From the sequence record DRR723986_646: a DNA stretch of 64,000 nucleotides. One strand, given 5' to 3'. The notes below the pieces were generated by a model. That model was not told the DNA's origin and did no database searches. It saw only the letters and a program-made list of their open reading frames with translations. The stretch's first letter is position 1. Each line of letters opens with the position of its first letter. This document shows, in pieces, positions 7,474-37,619 of the stretch. The translations under genes were made by a program, and so were the position numbers.

Positions 7474-9146
7474 GTACTCTGCTGGTAAACGTGAACATCC
7501 CGCTGTGGGAACGGTATCGAGATACCCTCACGGTCAAACCGCAGTTTGACCTCTCGGGTTATCTCCCAGTAAACCGACCAGTAATCCTCGGTCTTGACCC
7601 ACGGCCTGACGATCAGGTTCACCGAGGAGTCCGCGAGCTGGTGTACCTTAATCAGTGCCTCCGGCTTGGAGAGCGTTTTCTCGTGGCTGTCGACGATGTC
7701 ACGCAGCACACGCTCGGCGTGCTCGATATCGGCGTCGTAGCCAATCCCGAACTCCATATCGACCCGCCTGACATGCTGCGCCGTGACGTTCTTGATAACG
7801 TCGCCCCATATCTTGCTGTTGGGAATGACCAGGGTCTGGTTATCAAAGGTCACGATAGTGGTTGAAACCAGCGTCATCTTCTTCACCAGGCCTGCCGCGC
7901 CCGCCACCTCGACGTAGTCATTCACGTCATAGGGTCGGTAAATCAGGATCATGCCGCCCGCGGCAAAATTGCCCAGGGTATCCTGCAGCGCAAAACCGAC
8001 GATAAAGCCCGCAACACCGAGGCCGGCGAGCATTGGCCCGAGGGAAATACCGACCTGCGACAAGGCCACGAGAATACCGAACACCATCACGGTGCCACCG
8101 GAGGCGGATACCAGGATATCCTGCAGCAGTGCAGAAATGTCTGAGTGACTGCGTTCAATGGCCATTTTTACCAGCCGGCGAACAAAGCGCGCCAGAGCCC
8201 TGAAGGCCAGCACGATTAACAGGAAGACCAGGAGCTGGATCAGGAGATCCGGGGCATTCTTGGACAGCACACTTTTCAACCACGCGAAGGCCTCTTCAGA
8301 CATCTGCGCGAGCACACCGCGATCGAAGAGTCCGACTGACACCACGCTGCTTTCCCGCACCACGACGGTTCGATACATTGCAGTATCCAGTGCCAGACGA
8401 TCCATAAGCCCGACCAGCGAGCGCAGAACCTCGAGATAGAACTCATGGGACAGCCTTGACTGGTCTGCGGCAGCCTTCAAGTCGGTGTTGGTCCGATCCA
8501 GGGCCAGGCGACTGTCTATTTCTCGCAGCCCGGCGGCAACCAGTTCAAGCCTGGCAACGGTGCGCTCCGCATTGCGGCGCAACATCGTCCGCGCCTGGGT
8601 CTCGAGCTCATCGACAGCCAGCCCCAGTTCCCGGCGACTCTCGATCACCGAAACGATCGCGCCAAAGTAACGAATGCGCAGACTTCGCAGGCTGTGGGTA
8701 TAAGCCTGCTCCCTCACCTGGTCAGCTCCGCTAGCCGACCCGGCTCGCTGCTCACTGGCTGTTATGCGTTCATTGAGTTCATCAATGCGGACAAAAATTA
8801 CCTTGTCCACCCCCATCAGGCCGTCTCGCAGGCGCTGTTCCACAGCCAGGCGTGAGGCATTGTCCGACTCCAGCTTGCTCACCGTTCGCGACAGCTCATC
8901 CATAAGCGTGAGAGCGCGGATACCCAGCTCATCGCGCCGATACAGCAGGGACTCCGCGTCACCCGTGGCCGTGGATTCAAGGGCCGGAGTTAGTTCCTCG
9001 ATCAGCGCAATCAGCTGTTCTAGCTGCGCCACTTTCTTCTGGAACTGCTCCGGGTCAAGCTCGTCCTGGGCATGCGCCAGCGGGCTGAGCAAAAGTAGCA
9101 ACAGGAGGAGAACTCGGGAAACGATCAGGGAAAGACTCTTCGACAT
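7470..9146 (-). CDS. MscS-family mechanosensitive channel with large periplasmic N-terminal domain
   Basis: GVAGFIVGFALQDTLGNFAAG, IPNSKIW, LADSSVN and GISIPFPQRDVH motifs. Confidence 0.92.
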   Translation of the reverse strand: MSKSLSLIVSRVLLLLLLLLSPLAHAQDELDPEQFQKKVAQLEQLIALIEELTPALESTATGDAESLLYRRDELGIRALTLMDELSRTVSKLESDNASRLAVEQRLRDGLMGVDKVIFVRIDELNERITASEQRAGSASGADQVREQAYTHSLRSLRIRYFGAIVSVIESRRELGLAVDELETQARTMLRRNAERTVARLELVAAGLREIDSRLALDRTNTDLKAAADQSRLSHEFYLEVLRSLVGLMDRLALDTAMYRTVVVRESSVVSVGLFDRGVLAQMSEEAFAWLKSVLSKNAPDLLIQLLVFLLIVLAFRALARFVRRLVKMAIERSHSDISALLQDILVSASGGTVMVFGILVALSQVGISLGPMLAGLGVAGFIVGFALQDTLGNFAAGGMILIYRPYDVNDYVEVAGAAGLVKKMTLVSTTIVTFDNQTLVIPNSKIWGDVIKNVTAQHVRRVDMEFGIGYDADIEHAERVLRDIVDSHEKTLSKPEALIKVHQLADSSVNLIVRPWVKTEDYWSVYWEITREVKLRFDREGISIPFPQRDVHVYQQST

Positions 9147-9356: not shown

Positions 9357-11519
9357 ATGGCCGCAGGCGGTAACGCCGGCGTTGGCGACTTCAGTGGCGC
9401 AGCGCCCGCACTGCTTTCTCCAAATGCCCGCTATGCCATCAAGACGGCACTTAGCCTGACCCTGGCCTATCTGCTGCCCATGGCCATGGGCTGGCCACAG
9501 CCCCAGACGGCGGCAACCACGGTGATGCTGATCGCCGCAACAGGTGCCGCTTCTGAATCCCTGCAAAAGGGTGTCATGCGCCTGCTCGGCACCGTGGCGG
9601 GGGCAATCATCGGCCTTACCATGATCGCCCTGTTTCCGCAGGAGCGGATGACCTACCTGCTGCTGGTATCGCTAGTCGTCGCCCTGGTTATCTACCTGTA
9701 CAACGCTTACCAGGGTGATAGCACGATTTTCATGCTCACCGCCGTGGTCACCCTCATGGTCTTCAACGGGGGCGATGCCGAGGGCGCCTTCCTCTATGGG
9801 GTCGACCGGGCCTTTATGACCGCGTTCGGTGTGCTCGTCTATACGGTTGTTGCCAGCATGCTCTGGCCGGTAACCGAAGAGAACGATATTCGCGGGCTCG
9901 CGCGCGAGGTAAGCCACAGCCTGGGGGCATCACTCGAGCTACTCAGGGACGAAAACCCACCGACGGAGGACAGGGCGGAGAAGCTGCTGGCAGGGCTCAT
10001 TGCCAGCCGGGAAGCCTTCACAGCCCGCCTGAAGGCCGGCAGATCGGACTCAGAGAGCATTAAGGCCTATGCAGCGGAGTGGCGAACCATCAACGCCTGC
10101 TACCGCGAACTGGAAGAAATCGTGGTCCCGGGAATGCGCAACCGGATACATGAACTGCCCGACTTCCATCGTTATCTCGATAATCACGATGCAGCCGTTG
10201 CCAATCTTGGCAGGCTCATCCAGTACCTTGATGACAGCTGGGATAAGCACAGCGCCCCACTCAAGCCGGGGCTGGTGGCAGTCAGTCCCCGCGAGGCGCA
10301 GCTGGCGCAGGCCAGCCACCGCACCACTGCCATTGTCCTTACCCGGGCCGAAGCCCTGAACCAGGCCCAGCAACGGCTACTGCAGCTGATCGCCGCAGTA
10401 GGAAGCCTGGTATCGGGGGGCGGTGAGTTCACCGCGAGCGAACCGGAACCCGCGGAATCCCGCTTTATCTGGCGCGATCTGGAAGCGGGAAAAACGGCCG
10501 TCAGGGCATTCGTAACCTTCTGGGTGGCAACTGCCATCTGGATTGCCTACAACCCGCCAGGTGGCTTCATGTTCGTCACCCTCTGCACCATACTGATACC
10601 GCTGGTTTCCTACACCCCGGTGACCCCTAAATTGCTGATCATTCTCCTTTCATTCGGCTTTTTCTTCGCGTTGCCCGTCTACGTTTTCCTGCTGCCGGCA
10701 ATGACCCACTGGCTGCAGCTGGCCACGTTCATTTTTCTCTATGCGCTGGCCGGCTACCTGCTCTTCCAGGGACCGGTGGCGATTTTTTACCTGCTGGGAC
10801 TGTTCACCCTCGGCATCCAGAATGAGATGAGCTATCACTTCAACGCGATCCTGCTCATCATGCTCATGTTCTACATCGTCTGTGCCGTGCTGGTTATTTC
10901 TATCTACGTGCCGTTCACCAGTAACCCGGCGCGCCTTTTTGCCAGCCTGCGAGAGCGTTTCTTCTCCAACGTCAGCCATATCCTGCGGCTTCTGCAAAGC
11001 GCGGACAGGGTGCCGGCAGCACGACTGCGCAGCAGGCTGCAATTAAGCGCTGCACTCATTGCGAAAATGCGCGCCTTCGGCGAGCGGATCCCGGCCGACA
11101 GCTACCGGGGCACGTCTGCCGACGCCATTGCCCGCTTTATTGACGCCTGTGAAACCCTGCAGGGCGAACTAGAGATCCTCGCGGCCCGCGATGCAAGGGC
11201 CCGCGGCAACCCGTTGGTTCAACGGGCGAGACGACGAGATAGCGGGCAACTGCTGGCCGGACTGAGTGATGCGCTCGCCAGCGCACCCGCCAGTGCACTG
11301 GATCAGCGCTTCGATCGGGCACAGCGCGAGATAGAGAGCGTGGAACAGCGCCTGGACAGGTTCCTGAAGCAGGAGCAAGGTCGCACCGTACTGGGCGACA
11401 CGCTGAGCGGCTTCTACCTGTATCTCAACCTGCGCGCCCTGCTACTCGGTGCCCTGTTCCGCTGCCGGGACGCAGCGAGCGAGATAAACTGGCGCGAACT
11501 GAGGGAGAATCGCTTTTGA
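9357..11519 (+). CDS. FUSC family (AaeB/FusC-like) efflux membrane protein
   Basis: YAIKTALSLTLAY..GWPQP..AATTV and RLLGTVAGA motifs; two hydrophobic blocks; start uncertain. Confidence 0.85.
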   Translation: MAAGGNAGVGDFSGAAPALLSPNARYAIKTALSLTLAYLLPMAMGWPQPQTAATTVMLIAATGAASESLQKGVMRLLGTVAGAIIGLTMIALFPQERMTYLLLVSLVVALVIYLYNAYQGDSTIFMLTAVVTLMVFNGGDAEGAFLYGVDRAFMTAFGVLVYTVVASMLWPVTEENDIRGLAREVSHSLGASLELLRDENPPTEDRAEKLLAGLIASREAFTARLKAGRSDSESIKAYAAEWRTINACYRELEEIVVPGMRNRIHELPDFHRYLDNHDAAVANLGRLIQYLDDSWDKHSAPLKPGLVAVSPREAQLAQASHRTTAIVLTRAEALNQAQQRLLQLIAAVGSLVSGGGEFTASEPEPAESRFIWRDLEAGKTAVRAFVTFWVATAIWIAYNPPGGFMFVTLCTILIPLVSYTPVTPKLLIILLSFGFFFALPVYVFLLPAMTHWLQLATFIFLYALAGYLLFQGPVAIFYLLGLFTLGIQNEMSYHFNAILLIMLMFYIVCAVLVISIYVPFTSNPARLFASLRERFFSNVSHILRLLQSADRVPAARLRSRLQLSAALIAKMRAFGERIPADSYRGTSADAIARFIDACETLQGELEILAARDARARGNPLVQRARRRDSGQLLAGLSDALASAPASALDQRFDRAQREIESVEQRLDRFLKQEQGRTVLGDTLSGFYLYLNLRALLLGALFRCRDAASEINWRELRENRF

Positions 11520-28706: not shown

Positions 28707-28935
28707 GAAACAATCCTTCGTTAAACACAAGCGTGCGCGTCATCTGCGCGTCCAAGGGTCTAACATAACCCAAGCATGACCCCCCAGCCACTAACACGGG
28801 AGGGTTAGGCCCCTCCCCCGGACTACCGTCGCGCTGGCCGCGGGAGCATGATCAAGCACCAGTCGTCGCGGCGACAGGTGTGACACCTTGATCTAAACTG
28901 AAGCCGGGTGAAACCTCGTGAGTTATGAATAAAAA

Positions 28936-29490
28936 ATGAACACCTTAAGAACCAGCGATTCATCCCCCCTTGTTATCTCAGAGCTGTCTCTCGCACCTTG
29001 GCCGGGCTACCTCGGATTGACGATCTGTCCCGGTAAAAAGGACCGTGATAGGCACTGGGATCGTGATCTGACCACAGACATTACTGTAATTCAGGGCTGG
29101 GGCGCGTCAACAGTAGTCACATTGATCGAGGATCACGAGCTTACGTTTCTAAAGGTCCAGGGACTTGGAGAAGCCGTGCGCGCTGCCGGTATGACTTGGC
29201 ATCACCTGCCAATAGTGGATGTAAGTATTCCTGACCAGCGCTTCAAGCAAGGCTGGCAGTACAATCGAGCCAGGCTTTATGAGCAGCTAAGTGAGAATCG
29301 TCGGATACTGATTCACTGTCGAGGCGGTCTCGGGCGGACTGGTTTGGTTGCCGGCGTAATCATGGTAGAGCTCGGATTCTCACCCGAGGAAGCCATTCAT
29401 CGGGTGCGTATGGCCCGCCCCCATGCGATAGAAACCTTCGATCAGGAAGAATATGTACGCAGTACGCGGAGGCTAGCTTCACATGAATGA
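28936..29490 (+). CDS. Dual-specificity/PTP-like phosphatase (CDKN3 family)
   Basis: CPGKK, WHHLPIVD, P-loop HCRGGLGRTG and AIET..QE motifs. Confidence 0.9.
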   Translation: MNTLRTSDSSPLVISELSLAPWPGYLGLTICPGKKDRDRHWDRDLTTDITVIQGWGASTVVTLIEDHELTFLKVQGLGEAVRAAGMTWHHLPIVDVSIPDQRFKQGWQYNRARLYEQLSENRRILIHCRGGLGRTGLVAGVIMVELGFSPEEAIHRVRMARPHAIETFDQEEYVRSTRRLASHE

Positions 29491-30418
29491 GCTCTCTCGG
29501 TATAGCGGTGCGCTGACCGGACTAGCGGTAGGAGATGCGCTCGGCACAGCGCTGGAGTTTAAGCAGCCAGGGACCTTTGAGCCCATCGAAGACATCATCG
29601 GGGGTGGGCCATTCGGCTTGCAGCCAGGAGAGTGGACAGACGATACATCTATGGCCCTCTGCCTCGCCAAGAGCTTGGTGGAAAAGCAAGGATTCGACGC
29701 CAACGACCAGATGGCGCGCTACGTGCGTTGGTGGAAGCAAGGCTACATGAGCTCCAATGGCAGATGCTTTGATATCGGAGTCACAACATCACAGGCATTA
29801 TCGAGATTTTTGAAAAGTGGAGACCCTTTCTCGGGAGACACAGAAACTTTTTCAGCTGGCAACGGCTCTCTCATGCGATTGGCACCAATTCCCATGGCAT
29901 TTGCGTCAATGGAAAACACTTTGTGGGAGATTGCCGCGAAAAGTTCAGCAACAACCCATGCCACACGTACCTGTCTGGATGCCTGCAGCTTTTATGCTTC
30001 ACTGATTGCAATGGCTCTAAAGGGTATCGATAAGGCGGCTATCCTCGATCCCACCGCAATCCCTGCCAAGCTACGTATACCGGAGGCCGCCAGTGAAGTA
30101 TTGGCGGTTGCTGAGGGAAGCTATAAGCACAAAAAGCCACCAGAGATTCGAGGATCGGGCTACGTGGTTGATTCTTTGGAAGCGTCTCTCTGGGCTTTCT
30201 ATCACTCGGATACCTTTGAGCAGGGAGCTCTAATGGCTGTTAACCTGGGCGATGACGCCGATACGACCGGCGCAATCTACGGTCAACTTGCTGGCGCTTA
30301 CTATGGAATTGAAGGCATACCTGAAAAGTGGAGGAATATCATCGTAAACAACGCCTTAATGAAAGAACTCGCTGAATCCTTATTCACGCTTTCTCAAGGT
30401 ATTGTTGATTCTCGGTAA
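29483..30418 (+). CDS. ADP-ribosylglycohydrolase family protein
   Basis: GDALG, WTDDTSM, CFDIG, GNGSLMRLAP, TTH and VNLGDDADTTGAIYGQLAGA motifs; overlaps the phosphatase stop. Confidence 0.93.
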   Translation: MNELSRYSGALTGLAVGDALGTALEFKQPGTFEPIEDIIGGGPFGLQPGEWTDDTSMALCLAKSLVEKQGFDANDQMARYVRWWKQGYMSSNGRCFDIGVTTSQALSRFLKSGDPFSGDTETFSAGNGSLMRLAPIPMAFASMENTLWEIAAKSSATTHATRTCLDACSFYASLIAMALKGIDKAAILDPTAIPAKLRIPEAASEVLAVAEGSYKHKKPPEIRGSGYVVDSLEASLWAFYHSDTFEQGALMAVNLGDDADTTGAIYGQLAGAYYGIEGIPEKWRNIIVNNALMKELAESLFTLSQGIVDSR

Positions 30419-30453
30419 AAGGGGTCAGCGGTAAAAGGGGTCAGAGCCCTTTT
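30413..30453. repeat. Tandem 16-bp duplication plus hairpin at the end of the ARH gene
   Basis: CGGTAAAAGGGGTCAG at 30413-30428 and 30429-30444; the second copy forms the hairpin AAAAGGG-GTCAGAG-CCCTTTT. Confidence 0.8.
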
Positions 30454-30527
30454 ATGGAGCCCTTTCATGCTGAACCCTTTTTTCACTTTTGTTCTTTTTT
30501 TCAGTCCGTCCCGCGCCACTGGTGCGG

Positions 30528-30866
30528 TTAGCTTTCGGAACCACCTGGAACTTGAGGCGGTGATTCCAAGGCGCGTTTTACAACGTCTGCAATGCTGTCC
30601 CTAGTTATCGACTTTCGCTCGCAGTAACTGGAATCCAGCCAATCTACCATGTCCTTTGCGCCCTTGCTGGCATTACAGGAAGAACAGCAGCGTGCGATAT
30701 TTTCACGGGTAACTATTCGGGCATCGTTGACGATGTGCTCCCAAGTCGGGATCGTCTTGCGGGAGGTGTGCTCAATAGCAAAATCGACGTGACAGTAAAC
30801 ACACACTTGGTCGCGTTCGATTACTTCGCGCTCAAGCCAGTCCGGTATGTTCCAACTGTTTGCCAT
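30528..30866 (-). CDS. Small HNH endonuclease
   Basis: RDQVCVYC..TWEHIV..NIARCCSSCNASKG (CxxC, H, N, CxxCN). Confidence 0.85.
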   Translation of the reverse strand: MANSWNIPDWLEREVIERDQVCVYCHVDFAIEHTSRKTIPTWEHIVNDARIVTRENIARCCSSCNASKGAKDMVDWLDSSYCERKSITRDSIADVVKRALESPPQVPGGSES

Positions 30867-31135
30867 GACGCGACTATAGCAAAGGCGTTGTAGCGTTGCT
30901 CCCCTGCTCGTCTATCGGCTTAGTAAGCCCGTTCTGCTCCACTGGTGGGTAAACCCCGCAGGACGTAGGCAGATGCCCCAGGCGCAGGGTCATAGTGGCT
31001 CGGTGGGACAATCAGGGGAACATCAGAAGTGTCCGCTTTCACGTCATAGTCGACATATTGATGCTTGCATGAAATTACTTATATGCATGGAGTTCCGGCT
31101 CAGCTATTTTTAATAGCTATAACTAAAAAATTTTT

Positions 31136-31206
31136 GTTGACTCGGGTCAACCTTTTAGCAAGTGCATTCGATAGGCCTTGAAAGATTTTTGCCGGATTTC
31201 TATTGT
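31136..31206 (+). promoter_or_regulatory. Sigma70-type promoter with upstream palindromic operator
   Basis: -35 TTGAAA (31178-31183), 17-nt spacer, -10 TATTGT (31201-31206); palindrome GTTGAC-TCGG-GTCAAC at 31136-31151. Confidence 0.6.
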
Positions 31207-31211
31207 TTTAA

Positions 31212-31290
31212 CCGTCAAAGGCACAACCGACGCGAGTCGGTGTCGCAAAGCTGCGGGTCTTTCTTAACAGAAGATAGCCGGGCTTCCATA
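31212..31290 (+). ncRNA. Cyclic di-GMP-I (GEMM) riboswitch
   Basis: AAAGGCACAACC-GAC-GCGA-GTC-GGTGTCGCAAAGCTGCGGGTCT...AGATAGCCGGGCTTCC: P2 with a GNRA tetraloop, GCAAAG junction, GGTCT/GATAGCC receptor in P3, terminal CC. Lies 5' of a secreted-protein gene. Confidence 0.85.
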
Positions 31291-31353
31291 CTCGTAATAT
31301 TCACTCAATTGGACAGTCTTTCTCTTGAAAGACACGATATGGGAAACATGCCA

Positions 31354-31890
31354 ATGAAGAAATTATCAGGAGCGTTAGCGGCGGGAACAATCGCGATAGC
31401 AAGTACTCAGGCACTGGCTATGGGTGCTATTAGTGGGGGCGGTCAGCTCATCGAAGACGGCAACAAAATTAGCTTCGGTGTCTGGGCAAACGATGTGCCT
31501 GGAGTAAGTGTCGAGGGCGAGATTCAGGTGAATTTTCATAGTACATCAACGTTCAGCAAGAAGAAGTTTCATGGAACTATGGTCGGCACCCCGAACTTCT
31601 TCCCACCCAACAGTGAGACGTGCAATTCGGCAGCCAACGTTACCTTTGCGGGAACGTTTGATGGCGAGCCGGGTTGGGAAGTAATCCTTCGAGTCGGTGA
31701 AGCGGGGCCTCCCGGCCAGGCTACAATGACGGCCTTCGACACTGTACGAATAGAATTATTCGATCCTGCTTCAGCTAAATGGTATGACACCGATGGGGGA
31801 GATTTTTTACGACAAAGCTCATGTGTTGGATCTGCCAGAACTGGGCTAGATCGCGGTAACGTTACTATAGAAATCGCGGAGCCGATCTAG
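31354..31890 (+). CDS. Hypothetical secreted beta-rich protein (~178 aa)
   Basis: Signal peptide MKKLSGALAAGTIAIASTQALA, two Cys, terminator downstream. Alternative ATGs at 31339 and 31348. The 31162 ORF start would run through the riboswitch. Confidence 0.75.
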   Translation: MKKLSGALAAGTIAIASTQALAMGAISGGGQLIEDGNKISFGVWANDVPGVSVEGEIQVNFHSTSTFSKKKFHGTMVGTPNFFPPNSETCNSAANVTFAGTFDGEPGWEVILRVGEAGPPGQATMTAFDTVRIELFDPASAKWYDTDGGDFLRQSSCVGSARTGLDRGNVTIEIAEPI

Positions 31891-31921
31891 CTTCGGTTTT
31901 GCTTAACCGTCGATTCCAATG

Positions 31922-31950
31922 AAGGGGGCGTTTGCGCCCCCTTTTTATTT
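31922..31950 (+). terminator. Rho-independent terminator
   Basis: AAGGGGGCG-TTTG-CGCCCCCTT followed by TTTATTT. Confidence 0.9.
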
Positions 31951-32073
31951 GTGATGCTGCCATACAGACCGATGGTAGGCGAAAGCCGACCATTGGCCAG
32001 AATTAACCCCGGCAGGCTGAAAAGGGACCGCTTTCACCTCTTTTGAGTCGTTATGGAGAATCTTTGCAATCCT

Positions 32074-32373
32074 CTAATCAGTACTTGCGGTATCACAGGC
32101 CCGCAGTATTCCGCCTCCGCGTTTCTGTAGGTACATCTCAATAGCACCGACGATCACAACGCCTGGCCATAACGCGAATGGTCCCGCCTCTACCGATTCA
32201 ATGAAAATCATTAAGATTGGCATTAGCCAAACAGTAATTGGTAGGGCGACCATCGTACCGATTGCTCCGACTATTCCCATCCAGTCATCTGCCACCCGCC
32301 ACATAATCCAGATGTTGTAGCCCAGAGCAGTCATTGCCAAAACTCTGATGACTGTGTGCAGTATTACCGTCAC
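32074..32373 (-). CDS. Hypothetical membrane protein
   Basis: About three hydrophobic segments; AAGGAG RBS before GTG. Confidence 0.65.
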   Translation of the reverse strand: MTVILHTVIRVLAMTALGYNIWIMWRVADDWMGIVGAIGTMVALPITVWLMPILMIFIESVEAGPFALWPGVVIVGAIEMYLQKRGGGILRACDTASTD

Positions 32374-32518
32374 AAAATCTCCTTGATTTTCCTAACAAAT
32401 TCGAAAGAGGGTCAACGCATCCAGAGTCGCGCTGAATATACGCTTAGTGAGGGGTGTCCGCTTTCACCTCAAAGGGGAACTGATCTCAAGGGGTAAGTTA
32501 ACCCCGTTGCCAAGAAAT

Positions 32519-33187
32519 CTAATCGAAATCAGTTAGCTGTCTAGCATCAACATACGCATGATAGACACCGAATTTTTCGAGGTTCTTGGGTAATCCCAAC
32601 ACTGCATGAATCATCCGCGTAGCACCTTGCCATTCCTGCTCCGTGGCAGGGCCGTCCATGTCTGCAGCATTCGTAAAATCAAGAAAAACCAAAGCACTAC
32701 CTATGCCATTCAGCTTGGTCAGCCAATACTGGTAAGCCAGCCTATTTGCATATTGGTAGAACGTGCTAGACCAAACGGCCTTACTGCGAGGTGCCAAGTG
32801 TTTCCTCGTAGCGTTTAAGCTCTTTTCTATCAATGCGAATGACTTAGGGGAAGCCTTTGACCCTGGTGAGGCGGCCTCAGGTATGTGGGCCTTGGCCTCC
32901 AATATGATTCGTTTACCCTTTGAAGTGATGCCCAGCCCATCCCAGACAGCACCTCGTGGCGGCCAGAATTCACTCAATGGCACCCTCAGGTCGCTCGGGG
33001 AGATATCAAGCTTGCGTAGGGCTGCGGTATCTCGATATTCGATATAATCATCTTCCGAAAGGGGTGATATCCAAGAGACACTCTCCCTCCTTTCAAGGGC
33101 TCCAGCCTTCTTCAACGCAAGCCTGAGCAGTTCAGGTCTTTCGTTTACTGCCAATTGCAGCAATCGCTGACTACCTAGGGTTTCCAT
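32519..33187 (-). CDS. Hypothetical protein, probable PD-(D/E)xK nuclease fold
   Basis: FWPPRGAVWDGLG..IILEAKAH..E pattern and YQYANRLA; AGGTG RBS. Confidence 0.65.
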   Translation of the reverse strand: METLGSQRLLQLAVNERPELLRLALKKAGALERRESVSWISPLSEDDYIEYRDTAALRKLDISPSDLRVPLSEFWPPRGAVWDGLGITSKGKRIILEAKAHIPEAASPGSKASPKSFALIEKSLNATRKHLAPRSKAVWSSTFYQYANRLAYQYWLTKLNGIGSALVFLDFTNAADMDGPATEQEWQGATRMIHAVLGLPKNLEKFGVYHAYVDARQLTDFD

Positions 33188-33274
33188 TCACCTGACCTAA
33201 ATGAGCGCATCCATTTACAATGTAGTTCAAATACCGTTTCTAGGCGAAAGCGGACGTTCGGTTGTAACGTCCGA

Positions 33275-33703
33275 TTATTCCCGCTGACTTGAGTCAACTT
33301 GCTGACTTATGTAACGCCATATGGCGTAAACGATAGTAGATAGGGTAACCAGCCAATATGTCCCATGCATCGCAGGAATCATCAGGCTCGCCAATGGGCC
33401 CTCCGCCTGCTCCGCCAACCAGATACCCATAAAGCTCAACTCCTCGCCCTGCTCAGCCATTGAATGTAACTGACTTATCCCGGCTAAAAGAATATGCATC
33501 TCACTTATCGTCATAGAAAAATTGAGGTAGCCGTATGTGAGATACGAGCCAAGCAAGATAGACAATAGAGCAACATTCAGCCGAATTAGCTGAATAGAGC
33601 AGATTACTAGAACACCAACCGTTATCGTGATGAACACTTCAATTCTCATCACAGATATTTCATTCCCTGACTGAATGATCTGCCATATCTCGGACTCACC
33701 CAT
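33275..33703 (-). CDS. Hypothetical membrane protein
   Basis: Three TM segments; GGAG RBS before ATG 33703. Confidence 0.7.
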   Translation of the reverse strand: MGESEIWQIIQSGNEISVMRIEVFITITVGVLVICSIQLIRLNVALLSILLGSYLTYGYLNFSMTISEMHILLAGISQLHSMAEQGEELSFMGIWLAEQAEGPLASLMIPAMHGTYWLVTLSTIVYAIWRYISQQVDSSQRE

Positions 33704-34134
33704 CTCATAGACTCCAGGCTCATACTCCAAGTAAGAATAGACCGACTTTCGCTAACAGGCGAAAGCGGATCCATCGGGCCATCTCAGCATCAGGATGGAG
33801 ACAACTTCAGGCTTTACTTCATACCGGTATTCCAATCGCACTCCTTGGGATTCATGCAACCACGCGCCACAAACCAGCGAATGTCGCGCACAGCCACTCG
33901 TTTGGCGCAAAGGGCCATGCCTAAAAGAATCGCGAGACGTGACAATAGGCACATCAAGGAACGACGTCATGGATGACGGGTCAGGGATGGCCCATCTTAT
34001 CTAATCGACATCGCATAAGACGATCCCAACCACCGCAATACAGTCACGCTTAGCCCGACTGGACCATCAAGCAAGGCTCGTATAGCCTGCTGCTTTTGCA
34101 GCATGCATGTATCTGTGTGATGGGGGTTAGTACG

Positions 34135-34977
34135 TTGGAATACTGGTTGGCCTGGTTTCATGAGACCCATACAGGGGGCGAAGCCACGGCGATTGCCCGT
34201 GCTGCGGAGAAAATGGGCTTTACCGGGATTGCTCTGTCTGACCACGTGGCTCTTCCCAAGCAACAGCAGGCCCGACATCCAATGCTGGGAATACCCTACG
34301 ACCCCCAGATTCCAATCATTGAGCCCATTACCACTGCGGCGACGATGGCAGCGGTTACCGAGAACCTGTGCTTTATGACCTATGCCTACGTCATGGGTAT
34401 GCGTGAGCCCTTCTCGGTAGCCAAACAGGCTGCTGCCCTGGCTGACCTGAGCAATAACCGCTTCAATCTCGGGATCACTCCGGGTTGGAATAGCGACGAG
34501 ATCGCGCTCCTCGGGCACGATCCCGATACGCGCGGGCCGCGTTTCACTGAATCCATCGACGTGATACGAGGATTATGGACCCACGACCTTTTCTCCTATT
34601 CAGGGAAGCACTACAACTTTGAAGACGTGGGGATTGCGCCCCGCCCGCAACAAGCACCGCCTATCCTGGTGGGTGGCCATACGCCTGCCGCAATTCGGCG
34701 AGCAGCAGAACAAGCTGGCTGGATCGGCATGAACCACAGTCGCGAGGAGTTGCGTCCCCTGCTGGGCAAACTGTCGGAGCTATCCGAAGGCCTTGCGCTG
34801 AGCTACGTCATAGCGGCGGAGCCACCCAGTCACGAGTATCTGGGTGCACTGGAGGAAATGGGTGTTAACGGCGTGGTGTTTATGCCCTGGCCCGTAATGC
34901 AGCAGGAACCGGTACCGCTCGCCAGCAAGCTCGCTGCTATGGAGGCGCTGGCGAGAAAACTGGAGAGCTTCTCCTAG
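34135..34977 (+). CDS. LLM class (putative F420-dependent) oxidoreductase
   Basis: AEKMGFTGIALSDHV, EPITT, LSNNRFNLG..GW..E, PPILVGG..AIRRAA motifs; start is TTG 34135 or ATG 34120. Confidence 0.85.
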   Translation: MEYWLAWFHETHTGGEATAIARAAEKMGFTGIALSDHVALPKQQQARHPMLGIPYDPQIPIIEPITTAATMAAVTENLCFMTYAYVMGMREPFSVAKQAAALADLSNNRFNLGITPGWNSDEIALLGHDPDTRGPRFTESIDVIRGLWTHDLFSYSGKHYNFEDVGIAPRPQQAPPILVGGHTPAAIRRAAEQAGWIGMNHSREELRPLLGKLSELSEGLALSYVIAAEPPSHEYLGALEEMGVNGVVFMPWPVMQQEPVPLASKLAAMEALARKLESFS

Positions 34978-35070
34978 ATATTGCTATGCCAGGCTTGCCC
35001 TACGAGCCCCAGTGAGGACACAAGAATTCTCATCCCTGAGCCTGAAATCGGTCTTGATGCCTATGTGCGA

Positions 35071-35814
35071 CTAGGGCACCCATCGGTCATTCAGCAAAAC
35101 GACTATTTCTCCCGACGCTGCAACAAGACTTTCACGTACCGCCTGTTCAAGCTTTCCCGATTCGGTGTCCAACCAGTCGTCAATGGCATAAACGCCTGAT
35201 TTTCCTGTAAAACTCCTGTATCCGTAATGCGGCACGCGATCGGGCTCTGTGCTCTCGAAATTAGCGCCAATCGTTGTCAGTAGCTGCGCGCCGCCACTTA
35301 CCTTTTGGAACTCAATGTTGTCTATGTAGAGTACAGCCTGCATGGCAGTCGATTCAGGTTCAACGATCATCCCGGGGGGCAGTTTCTCCGAGATTTGTTC
35401 AATCAGAGCCGCTGAAAAATCATGCTTTGCGCTCAAAGAAGCGACCTGCTTCTCCAACTCACGCGCTTCGTCTTCAGGAAATCCTGACAAGCCGTATAGT
35501 ATCCCTGTGGCCCCGCCGGCAATTAGACCACCGCTCATGAGCGCTGTAATGCACAAGCCGTAAAGAAATGGCCCACACGCAATAGCGCCGATCGCAGCCC
35601 CACCTATCGTGCCTGCTGCTGCACCCTTGCCAGCGCCATCCAGGGCTTTCTCTCCCTGGGTCTCAATCTCAACAAAGTTCATGACAGTTCTTGGACTGAC
35701 AAGCGCTATGTTTCCAAACGATCGATCAAATTCTTTCTTTTTGGGTGCCGGCGTACTGCAGGCAGTTATTGATACAGCTATTATGCAGACTACAAATATT
35801 TTGGCTGATCGCAT
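35071..35814 (-). CDS. Hypothetical lipoprotein with glycine-zipper-like segment
   Basis: Lipobox ITAC after a hydrophobic leader; GAGKGAAAGTIGGAAIG..GLIAGGATG segment. Confidence 0.7.
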   Translation of the reverse strand: MRSAKIFVVCIIAVSITACSTPAPKKKEFDRSFGNIALVSPRTVMNFVEIETQGEKALDGAGKGAAAGTIGGAAIGAIACGPFLYGLCITALMSGGLIAGGATGILYGLSGFPEDEARELEKQVASLSAKHDFSAALIEQISEKLPPGMIVEPESTAMQAVLYIDNIEFQKVSGGAQLLTTIGANFESTEPDRVPHYGYRSFTGKSGVYAIDDWLDTESGKLEQAVRESLVAASGEIVVLLNDRWVP

Positions 35815-36159
35815 CGAACCCCCCGTAATACAGTAACTAAGCTGCATTGATTGAAAGTTGAATCGGCCTGGCACCTGGTATCGTTGTTCCTCTTAAGACT
35901 ATAGCTCGTCATATCCGATTGAGACAGACGCCCAATTAAGAAAGACCTCTGACACAAGACGAAGAGCCGGGGTGGTAAATCTGACGAGATATTTTTACCT
36001 CAGAGCCGTCATTCCATCGTAGCAATCAATGCGTCAATTCTCTGGTAGATCGAATTGGCCCCCAGCCGTTTGGATTCGTTGAGGCATGGAGTAATGCAAC
36101 GAATACTTGTAGCCTTGGGAATCTAACGACACGTAAGCCGAGTATCAGAGGAGAATCAC

Positions 36160-36597
36160 ATGAGCCCCGACACGTTATTTCTGGTATGCAATTATGCCGT
36201 TCTACCAGCCTGGTTCCTGCTCTTCCTGGCGCCTCACCACCGCGTCACACAGGTTCTGGTGCATGCGGTATGGGTACCCCTGCTATTGGGCCCATTCTAT
36301 ATATGGGCACTGTTTTTTGGAGACCCTTCACCGGAAGGGGCAGGATTTGGATCGCTTGAAGCAGTCATGCTGCTATTCCAAAGCCCCACAGCAGTGTTAG
36401 GAGGCTGGATTCACTATTTGGTGTTTGACCTGTTTATCGGCGCCTGGATCGTCCGTGACGCCCGACGCCATGGCATAAATCACTGGCTAACGACCCCCCT
36501 GCTGTTCGCCACCCTCATGGCGGGCCCAGCAGGCCTGATGCTCTACTTGCTGCTGCGACTGGCATTAACAAAAACAACCACTCTGCTTGAGTGCTAA
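36160..36597 (+). CDS. ABA4-like (DUF4281) membrane protein
   Basis: LPAWFLL..AP, GWIHYLVFDLFIG.WI..D and TLMAGPAG motifs; GAGGAG RBS. Confidence 0.88.
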   Translation: MSPDTLFLVCNYAVLPAWFLLFLAPHHRVTQVLVHAVWVPLLLGPFYIWALFFGDPSPEGAGFGSLEAVMLLFQSPTAVLGGWIHYLVFDLFIGAWIVRDARRHGINHWLTTPLLFATLMAGPAGLMLYLLLRLALTKTTTLLEC

Positions 36598-36756
36598 GCC
36601 CCTGGGAGGAAAAGGTCCTGTAACCCAGCCCTCTGATCTGTTCGCTTTCATATCGAAGTGGCAGTTTCAGCCAGGCGAAAGCTCGGGAATCAAACCTGTC
36701 TATCACTGCCGATATAGCCGGGCCCGCTATAGCGACAAGTGACTGAAGTCAGACCG

Positions 36757-37332
36757 TCAATTCAGGGCGTCATCAGGCCAGAATTTGGTTCCCTGAAGAG
36801 TAGCCTGCAAAGCGATTCCAGCCTCCGTCAACTGATATACCCTTGTGCCTGGCATTGCCGTAACCGCAGTCTCAACGCCATCGCCCTGCGACTCCGATTC
36901 CAGGTTCATATCAGCCTGGGCTGAAAAGTCCCATCCTTCTGATTCAAACTGTTGCAGGGCTGCATCGGTGTCAAAGACGAAGATCACGGCGAACTGTTTA
37001 ACGCCCATGCCCCAACCGCCACCCGCCGAGAACATTTTGTAATAGGTGTCCTGTCCGTCGCCGTTATCCCGCAAGATGCCTCCCCCGCGCTGGGTCGATA
37101 CCAGCAAGACGTTAATACCGATATTCGAAAACACGGCATAGCCTTTCGCATCCTTAAGCTGCTGTTCCGAACCGGGTTTTTCCTTGAACAACTTTGCCAG
37201 GGCTGCATCTCGCGCCTCCTGAAGTTCCTGCCTTTTGTCTTCAGGGTCCTTCTTGTCCCAGGGCGCCGCATGGGCACCCAGAGCAAAGATGCAAAATGCC
37301 AATAGGAAATATGTTCTTACAAGATTGGACAT
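36757..37332 (-). CDS. YSC84/SYLF lipid-binding domain protein, secreted
   Basis: AKGYAVF, GGGWGMG..VIFVF and LTEAGIALQATLQGTKF motifs; signal peptide. Confidence 0.82.
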   Translation of the reverse strand: MSNLVRTYFLLAFCIFALGAHAAPWDKKDPEDKRQELQEARDAALAKLFKEKPGSEQQLKDAKGYAVFSNIGINVLLVSTQRGGGILRDNGDGQDTYYKMFSAGGGWGMGVKQFAVIFVFDTDAALQQFESEGWDFSAQADMNLESESQGDGVETAVTAMPGTRVYQLTEAGIALQATLQGTKFWPDDALN

Positions 37333-37619
37333 AGAAACCTCTGTTCAGGTGGATCGATAACCCTAATGGTATCCAGATGGCGTCACGGGTGGAAGCAGAC
37401 CATAGGCTCAGCACCATAGATTTGCGCTGACTCGACAAGCTGGCGACATCATCCGCCAAAAAACCTCACTCTATTATCGATTCAGTCGGGGTTTATGATC
37501 CAGTCTGCCATGAGTACGGGCTCGTGCTATTACGAGCCCGCAGGGGCCGCCGGCGGCCTACGACCATTCGATTATGAATAAGGACGCCGCCTGCCCTATA
37601 CTCCTGCAAAAACTACAGG

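Follow-up and report, generated by a model that had tools for sequence, protein, structure and literature searches.

A 64,000-nt stretch of DNA from sequence record DRR723986_646 (hereafter, the window) contains, between 30.5 and 33.8 kb, a row of five small foreign genes separated by worn copies of a palindromic element. We interpret this region as a decayed five-cassette piece of an integron-like gene-cassette array without integron parts, and we assign this reading a probability of roughly 0.55. The same element bounds single-gene cassettes in other genomes, homology breaks at it, and it brackets the gene of a small recombinase. These three observations speak for the central proposal of a preliminary description of this DNA, namely a gene-capture system that acts in trans; those that speak against it are weighed below.

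A clustered palindromic motif in the window

The motif GTCCGCTTTCRCCT occurs at 0 or 1 mismatch at 31031(+), 31977(-), 32026(+), 32456(+), 33242(-), and 33757(-). These six copies are all the matches with at most one mismatch in the 64 kb, and they are confined to 2.7 kb (31031-33770), so the clustered motif of the preliminary description is real. At up to three mismatches, the window holds 21 matches versus 11.6 +/- 3.3 in shuffled sequence (21 was reached by 1 of 100 shuffles), and an 11-mer core of the motif has eight matches versus 2.85 +/- 1.83 in shuffles, seven of them at 31034-36683. The sequences around the copies are mutually unrelated. The motif covers the centre and one arm, the inner one, of a 30-bp unit (two arms of 12 bp and a centre of 6 bp), and the arms of the window units are complementary at just 4-7 of 12 positions. 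Better-kept copies elsewhere read TAAT-GTCCGCT-TTCRCCTMAW-AGCGGAC-ATT, which bears out the hairpin deduced earlier, GTCCGCTTT-CRCCTC-AAAGCGGAC, as well as the remark that one arm and the loop are better kept than the other arm (motif-side arm in 35 of 36 copies, far arm in 22-30 of 36).

Units occur in pairs that we refer to as junctions, and a covariance model (R1) was built from 49 junctions of other genomes, with the window copy excluded. R1 identified one intact and four or five decayed junctions between 31.0 and 36.0 kb, each scoring best on the minus strand. The intact junction (31961-32055) reaches 49.5 bits (E 5.8e-14) on the minus strand versus 28.1 bits on the plus strand. Four of the five cassette open reading frames (ORFs) lie on the minus strand as the junctions do, and a riboswitch-controlled gene alone is inverted; the earlier wording of "mixed orientations" is therefore misleading. 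Under E = 1, R1 has no further match anywhere in the window, and at 36640, 36673, and 37387 it finds nothing even up to E = 10. Because R1 is weak at 35941-36016 and finds nothing at the latter three positions, the element-bearing array spans about 30.5-33.8 kb and not 30.5-37.4 kb. The role of the palindromes as gene separators is thus upheld for 31.0-33.8 kb, is weak at 35993 (10.8 bits), and has no support from R1 at 36640, 36673, and 37387. The element model lends no support for 33.8-37.4 kb, where the array had been extended to include a luciferase-like monooxygenase (LLM) gene and lipoprotein, ABA4-like, and YSC84-like genes.

Anatomy of units and junctions in related genomes

In related genomes, the unit consists of 12-bp arms around a 6-bp asymmetric centre, of which there are two types, CACCTC (A) and CGCCTA (G). 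The consensus unit has the layout of a tyrosine-recombinase core site, that is, two inverted arms around an asymmetric centre of 6-8 bp. A junction is polar and about 95 nt long, and comprises an A unit, a spacer of about 30 nt between the conserved inner arms, and an inverted G unit. This A plus G pairing is found in 50 of 54 junctions from 21 sources, and 50 of the 54 have a distance of 46-49 nt between arm starts. The alignment of the 49 junctions shows strongly conserved arms and centres and a variable spacer, which often has its own small hairpin. A long stem between the A and G units is paired in 85.6% of cells of this alignment, with position 20-86 being T.G in 49 of 49 junctions; RNAalifold returned a partial stem only, so pairing was tallied for individually specified stems. 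Folding is slightly more favourable on the sense strand in 37 of 50 junctions (mean -12.2 versus -10.9 kcal/mol, DNA parameters), and no T run of the kind that marks an intrinsic terminator lies 3' of either unit in the 49 aligned junctions.

The position of the junctions relative to genes is regular. The A unit abuts the stop codon of the upstream ORF, with the stop typically in or just before the unit, and the G unit precedes the next ORF. Unit orientation alternates, which yields two kinds of modules: those that contain genes have outer arms at their borders, and the spacers have inner arms there. Genes are occasionally found inside an inner-arm module, among them a 170-aa ORF and the gene of the small recombinase itself.

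Distribution and content of the arrays

The protein encoded by the malonyl-CoA decarboxylase (MCD) gene of the window has its best relative, 70% identical, in the Halieaceae and places the window, which stems from a marine bacterium, in this family. Among five relatives' genomes, four had the motif at background level, and one (Candidatus Seongchinamella marina, G004) had 39 matches versus 18 in the control, about 30 of the 39 in four clusters. Sampling 301 Halieaceae genomes, we found at least one exact copy in 69 and 9-59 copies in 11, which we call motif-rich; the reversed control gave 0-2. Exact copies in the motif-rich genomes always cluster in arrays, at several loci per genome, and are not dispersed genome-wide. 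When 401 genomes of the order were sampled, more than one copy occurred only in G004 (19), G054 (5), and G021 (3), all of which also stand in the 301-genome sample. We also considered that the islands were imported from a donor with a genome-wide repetitive extragenic palindromic (REP) motif, and rejected this since no genome in either sample exceeds 59 exact copies. No junction was found in viral contigs. In metagenome contigs junctions are rare (20 stretches, mostly on short contigs), and none of these contigs has the small recombinase.

The junctions separate low-GC ORFs, mostly single and co-oriented, in G004, G007, G016, G045, and G070. Among 36 modules between neighbouring junctions, 22 hold a single ORF, none of the 36 neighbouring pairs has opposite polarity, and 56 of the 65 ORFs are in sense. 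Mean GC of the ORFs is 0.483 in arrays (n=129) versus 0.529 outside (n=123). Among the cargo are a DarT/NADAR pair, a reverse transcriptase, nucleases, and hydrolases, besides many orphans. The DarT/NADAR pair (L101:10696-12192) and the 343-aa reverse transcriptase (L105:4333-5364) are cassettes of G004 arrays, so the arrays act partly as defence-gene stores. Eight of 20 array loci (L103, L105, L122, L124, L126, L129, L133, and L134) have a tRNA or tmRNA gene no more than a few kb away, and such genes are the usual landing sites of integrative islands. A literature search returned no publication with the 14-mers of the motif in a relevant context, and none on Halieaceae integrons or on such small recombinases with cassettes.

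Homology breaks at the units

Genomes G045 and G007 share a sulfatase cassette that is 96.6% identical and has different neighbours in the two genomes. Identity runs from the G centre to the A unit, and the adjoining spacers are no more alike than random spacers. Three more shared segments end at units, one of which is a gene between inner arms. At the orthologous tRNA-His site, the two genomes carry different cassettes, and homology breaks at AAC|G of the G unit.

The window was compared with the contigs of four metagenome runs from one study (contigs only, no RNA runs). Contigs of three runs carry cassette 1 of the window (151 aa) at >=99% identity next to three other left neighbours that replace cassette 2, and they break at 33238-33241, right after CGCCTA in unit orientation. 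One further contig diverges at 32040, right after CACCTC. Breaks at these positions imply that the outer arm goes with the cassette; since the inner arm and centre are invariant, the true crossover could lie anywhere within about 20 nt. An apparent joint from 33255 to 32453, with 32 letters between, was rejected, as it matches the window only over the conserved arms and is a generic junction from elsewhere. In a contig of run X3 (depth 2.4), position 36604 is linked to 37613 through 11 different letters, and the gene of the YSC84/SYLF-like lipoprotein (36605-37612) is therefore present in some strains and absent from others, with ends that are not at units.

Candidate recombinases

XerC and XerD are the only tyrosine recombinases that were found in every one of the ten motif-rich genomes searched. 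Integrase genes or fragments adjoin units by their 3' ends at six places, one each in G142, G013, and G036 and three fragments in G007. The G142 gene encodes a full-length integrase of 356 aa and lies 75 nt from a perfect G unit. The G013 gene, which has a primase gene as its neighbour and is 1.3 kb away from an array, encodes a 393-aa P4-like integrase. The P4-like element of G013 (primase-polymerase/helicase plus an integrase with an arm-binding domain; L195:828-7164, G013:C19) is located directly upstream of a three-cassette array, and two G007 arrays are headed by fragments of the same integrase family.

The G036 gene encodes a complete protein of 208 aa whose alignment with Xer-type enzymes is restricted to their catalytic domain. 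It scores below the cut-off of every NCBIfam model, and the best PDB match is XerD (E 2e-4). The family is very large, its members are nearly all 208 aa long, and they are mostly found on contigs of about 1 kb; it is present in 33 of 301 Halieaceae genomes. At 20 Halieaceae loci of the family, a (-) arm precedes the gene by <=230 nt at 8 and a (+) arm follows it at 7; both arms are present at 4 loci and at least one arm at 11, and arms in the wrong orientation occur at 2 and 1 loci, respectively. Three loci have flanking inverted repeats that match at 15-16 of 16 positions, and the 3' flank of the gene resembles the right half of the junction spacer. With inverted units on either side, the recombinase gene therefore occupies the place of the spacer in a junction. 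G036 and G091 carry the gene in array contigs, and G007 has a fragment of it; among array loci, it occurs only at L197 and L127. At one locus (L211, G054:C1:3683290-3686877), the small recombinase gene is located within inverted repeats of about 55 nt that reach well beyond the unit and have a third centre type, CGTCCA.

Relationship to integrons and dif modules

We built a second model (R2) from 23 canonical attC sites of two Halieaceae integrons, in which attC boxes were picked by a relaxed rule and include ACATAAC and GTTATGT. R2 recognised 12 sites in the control integron L141 but matched neither the window nor the junctions; R1 had no match at the loci of five true integrons. The units do not preserve the AAC triplet (the base after CCTAA is C in just 4 of 36), and the GTT-like and AAC-like triplets of the junction stand in reversed order relative to attC on both strands. 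The preliminary description was accordingly correct that the copies lack attC ends. IntI (TIGR02249) scores above cut-off in 92 of 301 Halieaceae genomes but in only 1 of 11 motif-rich ones, G016. Its integron contains canonical attC sites but is free of the motif, whose clusters are located at other loci.

The two kinds of sites are found within each other. Canonical attC sites lie inside modules bounded by a G and an A unit in genomes in which no IntI was found: two at L122:11350-11921 (G045), one at L105:7408-7487 (G004), and two in L130 (G070; 7553-7636 and 9535-9623). Conversely, a true integron cassette of G037 (L139:1896-2540) comprises an attC, 12 nt, a G unit, an ORF, an A unit, 20 nt, and an attC, and the 12- and 20-nt flanks add up to the length of a junction spacer. 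This cassette is possibly a snapshot of a gene passing between cassette systems. Because attC sites lie in G-to-A modules and such a module lies in an integron, the two systems share genes and yet are distinct. Beside an integron integrase of G009 are seven tandem 51-nt repeats (L138:7644-8153), which are probably a repetitive protein-coding stretch.

Integrons and clusters of attC sites lacking integron-integrases (CALINs) share with our arrays a run of mostly single, promoterless-looking, co-oriented low-GC ORFs of uniform polarity, each followed by an imperfect palindrome of 60-110 nt made of two inverted "simple sites"; in both cases, cassettes are common to genomes in different contexts, and many arrays have no nearby integrase. 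Unlike integrons, the junctions lack RYYYAAC...GTTRRRY in attC order and are held in length to about +/-2 nt, and the candidate enzyme has 208 aa without an N-terminal domain and is encoded inside a junction rather than divergently from the array. The closest parallel in site logic is provided by the dif modules of Acinetobacter plasmids, where C and D modules alternate, exchange takes place between sites with like spacers, and excision takes out two adjacent modules together (PMC13141974). These modules resemble our units in having short core sites with a 6-bp centre, one better-kept arm, and alternating orientation, and the alternation therefore produces in both cases two module kinds bounded by like arms. 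They differ from the units, in which both arms are alike, two centre classes are fixed, and one module kind is nearly always a spacer of about 30 nt. The arrays described here are moreover chromosomal, often by tRNA or tmRNA genes, and their candidate enzyme is a dedicated small recombinase, not XerCD.

A likeness also exists to FimB/FimE-type invertases and shufflons, in which a tyrosine recombinase of about 200 aa without an arm-binding domain acts with short inverted repeats around a DNA segment; the 208-aa gene, too, lies between short inverted repeats and encodes such a protein. Its similarity to the invertase family is far under the cut-off (PRK09871, 22.9 bits versus 222), and the segments are whole genes in arrays. 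The two unit centres differ, which should disfavour inversion, unlike in FimB/FimE systems.

Interpretation and alternative explanations

In anatomy, the arrays correspond to a site-specific cassette system whose layout is integron-like and whose site logic is dif-module-like: core-type sites, two centre classes, fixed spacing, uniform polarity, breakpoints at units, and nested or abutting recombinase genes occur together. The enzyme is most likely the 208-aa catalytic-domain-only tyrosine recombinase or its relatives, acting in trans. Directly shown are the anatomy, polarity, and distribution of the junctions, their place outside the known site families, the breakpoints at units, and the adjacency of recombinase gene and units; we infer that the units are its recombination sites and that the reaction may proceed as follows. 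The units would be core sites of a tyrosine recombinase, and their two different centres would keep A and G units from recombining, so that only G x G or A x A exchange could occur. In this way, a cassette would leave or enter along with one junction, or the stretch from a G unit to an A unit would be exchanged; outer arms would move with the cassette, and inner arms and centres would remain common to all. More tentatively, and at less than even odds, this could be a second, IntI-independent capture system of the Halieaceae, in which the 208-aa recombinase swaps single-gene cassettes at paired sites with incompatible centres, a natural counterpart of recombinase-mediated cassette exchange. Its own gene would ride in a module, the junctions of about 95 nt would be gene-less miniatures of that module, and nesting of integron sites and modules would trade genes between the systems.

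Several observations weigh against this interpretation. No recombination was observed: no recombination product was seen, and no joints were found in the metagenome contigs, where rare circular forms cannot show. A 1.14-kb indel between G045 and G007 starts at a junction, yet its other end is a 5-nt microhomology with no unit. Since the inner arm and centre are invariant, breaks at units are equally expected from homologous recombination between repeats, and the metagenome contigs have low depth (2-8) and may represent other array positions or other organisms. The candidate enzyme (E <= 1e-15) was found in 2 of 11 motif-rich genomes (G036 and, as a fragment, G007) versus 31 of 290 others. Co-occurrence of this recombinase with motif-rich genomes is thus weak; it was not found in 9 of the 11. 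The integrases adjacent to units come from at least three unrelated families. The junction stems are conserved without covariation; in the local hairpins, 69.5% of cells are paired and double changes are in weak excess (11 pairs versus 6.4 in shuffles, reached by 3 of 500). Finally, a search of 45 array or metagenome loci yielded no relatives of the cassette proteins of the window, and the window copies are mostly decayed.

The inference of gene capture stands up better than its rivals. The main one, which we consider unlikely, is a selfish palindrome similar to REP sequences and their hairpin-forming doublets (REPINs) or to miniature inverted-repeat transposable elements (MITEs), which has spread between the genes of acquired islands and whose copies exchange DNA only by homologous recombination. 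REP sequences, bacterial interspersed mosaic elements (BIMEs), and REPINs are short extragenic palindromes that form inverted doublets around a spacer, have two sequence types, and are associated with REP-associated tyrosine transposases (RAYTs). The junction shares with them the inverted doublet of extragenic palindromes around a spacer and the two types, which is the REPIN/BIME layout; it also looks like an internally deleted unit-recombinase-unit module, as a MITE does to its parent element. The recombinase is mostly found on contigs of about 1 kb, as repeated mobile DNA is, assemblies break at the motif, and the invariant 18-20 nt could act as short homology. Against this explanation, the motif is not genome-wide, with 9-59 copies per genome nearly all in a few arrays, and it has no motif-flanked RAYT gene in the five motif-rich genomes searched and no GTAG/GTGG head, as stated in the preliminary description. 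A Y1 transposase (PF01797) gene is present in just 2 of 5 motif-rich genomes, and there are 0 motif matches at both loci. Random insertion would not yield the uniform polarity to genes (0 of 36 pairs opposed, 56 of 65 ORFs in sense), spacer sequences diverge although spacer length and A/G pairing stay constant, and separate G and A units flank one ORF inside a true integron cassette. Still less probable is an aberrant attC family, by which the arrays would be CALINs served by an integron integrase that is elsewhere or lost. The layout is that of integron cassettes, IntI is common (92 of 301 genomes), canonical attC sites occur inside G-to-A modules, one such module is a true integron cassette, and the G centre and the next bases read GCCTAAY, like the left attC box of Halieaceae. 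This is outweighed by the restriction of IntI to G016 among the 11 motif-rich genomes, with an integron free of the motif, by the failure of each model to find the sites of the other (the attC model misses junctions and window, the junction model the five integron loci), and by the AAC kept in 4 of 36 copies with triplets in reverse order.

An RNA-level or regulatory element that travels with acquired genes, such as a terminator, mRNA stabiliser, RNase III site, or operator pair, is improbable to a slightly greater degree. It would account for the better folding of the sense strand in 37 of 50 junctions, for the invariant T.G, which would be a U.G wobble in RNA, and for the A units that abut stop codons; the A-unit centre reads GAGGTG on the sense strand, which resembles a Shine-Dalgarno sequence. 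It does not fit the lack of T runs after the hairpins and of covariation, or the riboswitch cassette, which by eye appears to have its own terminator-like hairpin before the unit, and it explains neither the breakpoints at units nor the unit-bracketed recombinase genes. Least probable of all, in our view, is an Xer system, in which the host XerC/XerD would act on the units as Xer sites and so move the arrays, which would be chromosomal dif-module arrays. These enzymes alone occur in all ten motif-rich genomes searched, and alternating units with outer-arm and inner-arm modules mirror the C and D modules of Acinetobacter plasmids (PMC13141974). However, G004, G045, G007, and G016 each have one canonical dif site, which the units match at only 8-11 of 28 positions, without an XerD arm.

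The cassettes of the window and their surroundings

Read along the minus strand, on which all features named here lie unless stated otherwise, the array begins with its head at 33741..33835, where a G-type unit (33744-33773, motif copy 33757, one mismatch) has a vestigial A arm upstream (R1 13.7 bits, E ~0.04). The 151-aa ORF of cassette 1 (33275..33730), a membrane-like orphan, is followed by a decayed junction (33226..33301; 13.7 bits, E ~0.04). Its A arm is vestigial, shrunk to CGGACGTT, its spacer measures just 7 nt, and its G unit (33229-33258, motif copy 33242) is good, with 0 mismatches in the G arm. The 222-aa orphan ORF of cassette 2 (32519..33187) has no family match and precedes a decayed junction (32383..32485; 15.6 bits, E ~0.009) with a good A unit (32453-32482, motif copy 32456, 0 mismatches in the A arm) and a degenerate G arm at ~32402-32416. 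Cassette 3 is a 99-aa orphan (32074..32373), again without a family match, and its stop codon is 21 nt from the A unit of the intact junction (31961..32055), which runs from A to G on the minus strand (A unit 32023-32052, spacer, G unit 31964-31993).

The inverted cassette (31210..31890, plus strand) follows. It consists of a cyclic di-GMP-I riboswitch at 31210-31290 (Rfam RF01051, 61.8 bits), which bears out the riboswitch reported earlier, and a 183-aa ORF (31339-31890) with a signal-like start and no family at curated cut-off. A GC-rich hairpin and T run at ~31922-31948, seen by eye and not by a terminator scan, lie just before the G unit. The cassette (31210-31948) is thus self-contained as well as the sole inverted one, and a riboswitch-controlled gene is unusual as a travelling cassette. 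Its 3' boundary is an A-type unit with centre CACGTC (31028..31057, plus strand; one mismatch, arms 7/12 complementary), which contains the motif copy at 31031 and coincides with an R1 match on the minus strand (31025-31060, 10.6 bits, E ~0.39); the degenerate G arm that partners it (~30979-30992) was identified by eye only. The last minus-strand cassette, cassette 5, is a 112-aa ORF (30528..30866) that is weakly HNH-like: the earlier label of HNH nuclease retains a partial PADLOC match to PtuB (E 2.4e-6) and has no Pfam match. A possible, very decayed junction outside the array (35941..36016; 10.8 bits, E ~0.33) is unreliable.

Pfam assigned no family to the five ORFs between 30.5 and 33.8 kb, and NCBIfam and PADLOC added nothing on these beyond the weak HNH-type match of the 112-aa ORF. 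A PD-(D/E)xK-like protein that had been proposed among the separated genes is unsupported by Pfam, NCBIfam, and PADLOC. As reported earlier, no integrase is in view: the Phage_integrase profile has no match among the 14 window ORFs, and tblastn of the window with 34 tyrosine recombinases gave a best E of 0.085 and nothing in 28-40 kb, hence no integrase remnant. No tRNA or tmRNA gene lies near the array. The window array is most likely a decayed, probably inactive relic that is serviceable only in trans, because no such enzyme is encoded and the outer arms and most partner arms are lost.

The array is part of a low-GC island (28900..37600) between the MCD gene and SnoaL/MFS genes, and the element is found only in its 30.5-33.8 kb part. 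GC is 0.59-0.67 in the window overall and dips to 0.48-0.57 from about 29 to 38 kb, with about 0.60-0.66 around the dip, in agreement with the AT-richer segment noted before. Pfam bears out the labels MCD, phosphatase, ADP-ribosylglycohydrolase, LLM, ABA4-like, Ysc84 (weakly), SnoaL, and MFS. In 80 MCD loci of relatives, the motif has one chance match, within the MCD match itself, and the island genes or the far flank are absent beside MCD in 29 of 29 relatives' loci. Island proteins of the window had no match at E 1e-6 in 45 array, integron, or metagenome loci (best E 6.5e-4, 30% identity over 60 aa). At the edge of the island (28936-30418), a dual-specificity phosphatase-like gene that matches polymorphic-toxin-type PTP families overlaps an ADP-ribosylglycohydrolase gene by 8 nt; the pair is flanked by no unit and could be a signalling or toxin/antidote pair.

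Significance

For the window itself the finding is modest, a decayed and probably inactive relic. Integrons are the textbook system of single-gene capture, and their recombination sites set what software can find. Arrays such as those described here escape searches keyed to IntI or canonical attC, yet they hold defence-type and orphan genes and differ between close relatives. If the small recombinase is indeed the enzyme, it would be among the smallest site-specific recombinases with a defined heterospecific site pair, which would be of practical interest for genome engineering, and cassette capture would have arisen more than once. The mutual nesting with integron cassettes would then give a specific setting in which to examine the entry of genes into the pool of integron cassettes.

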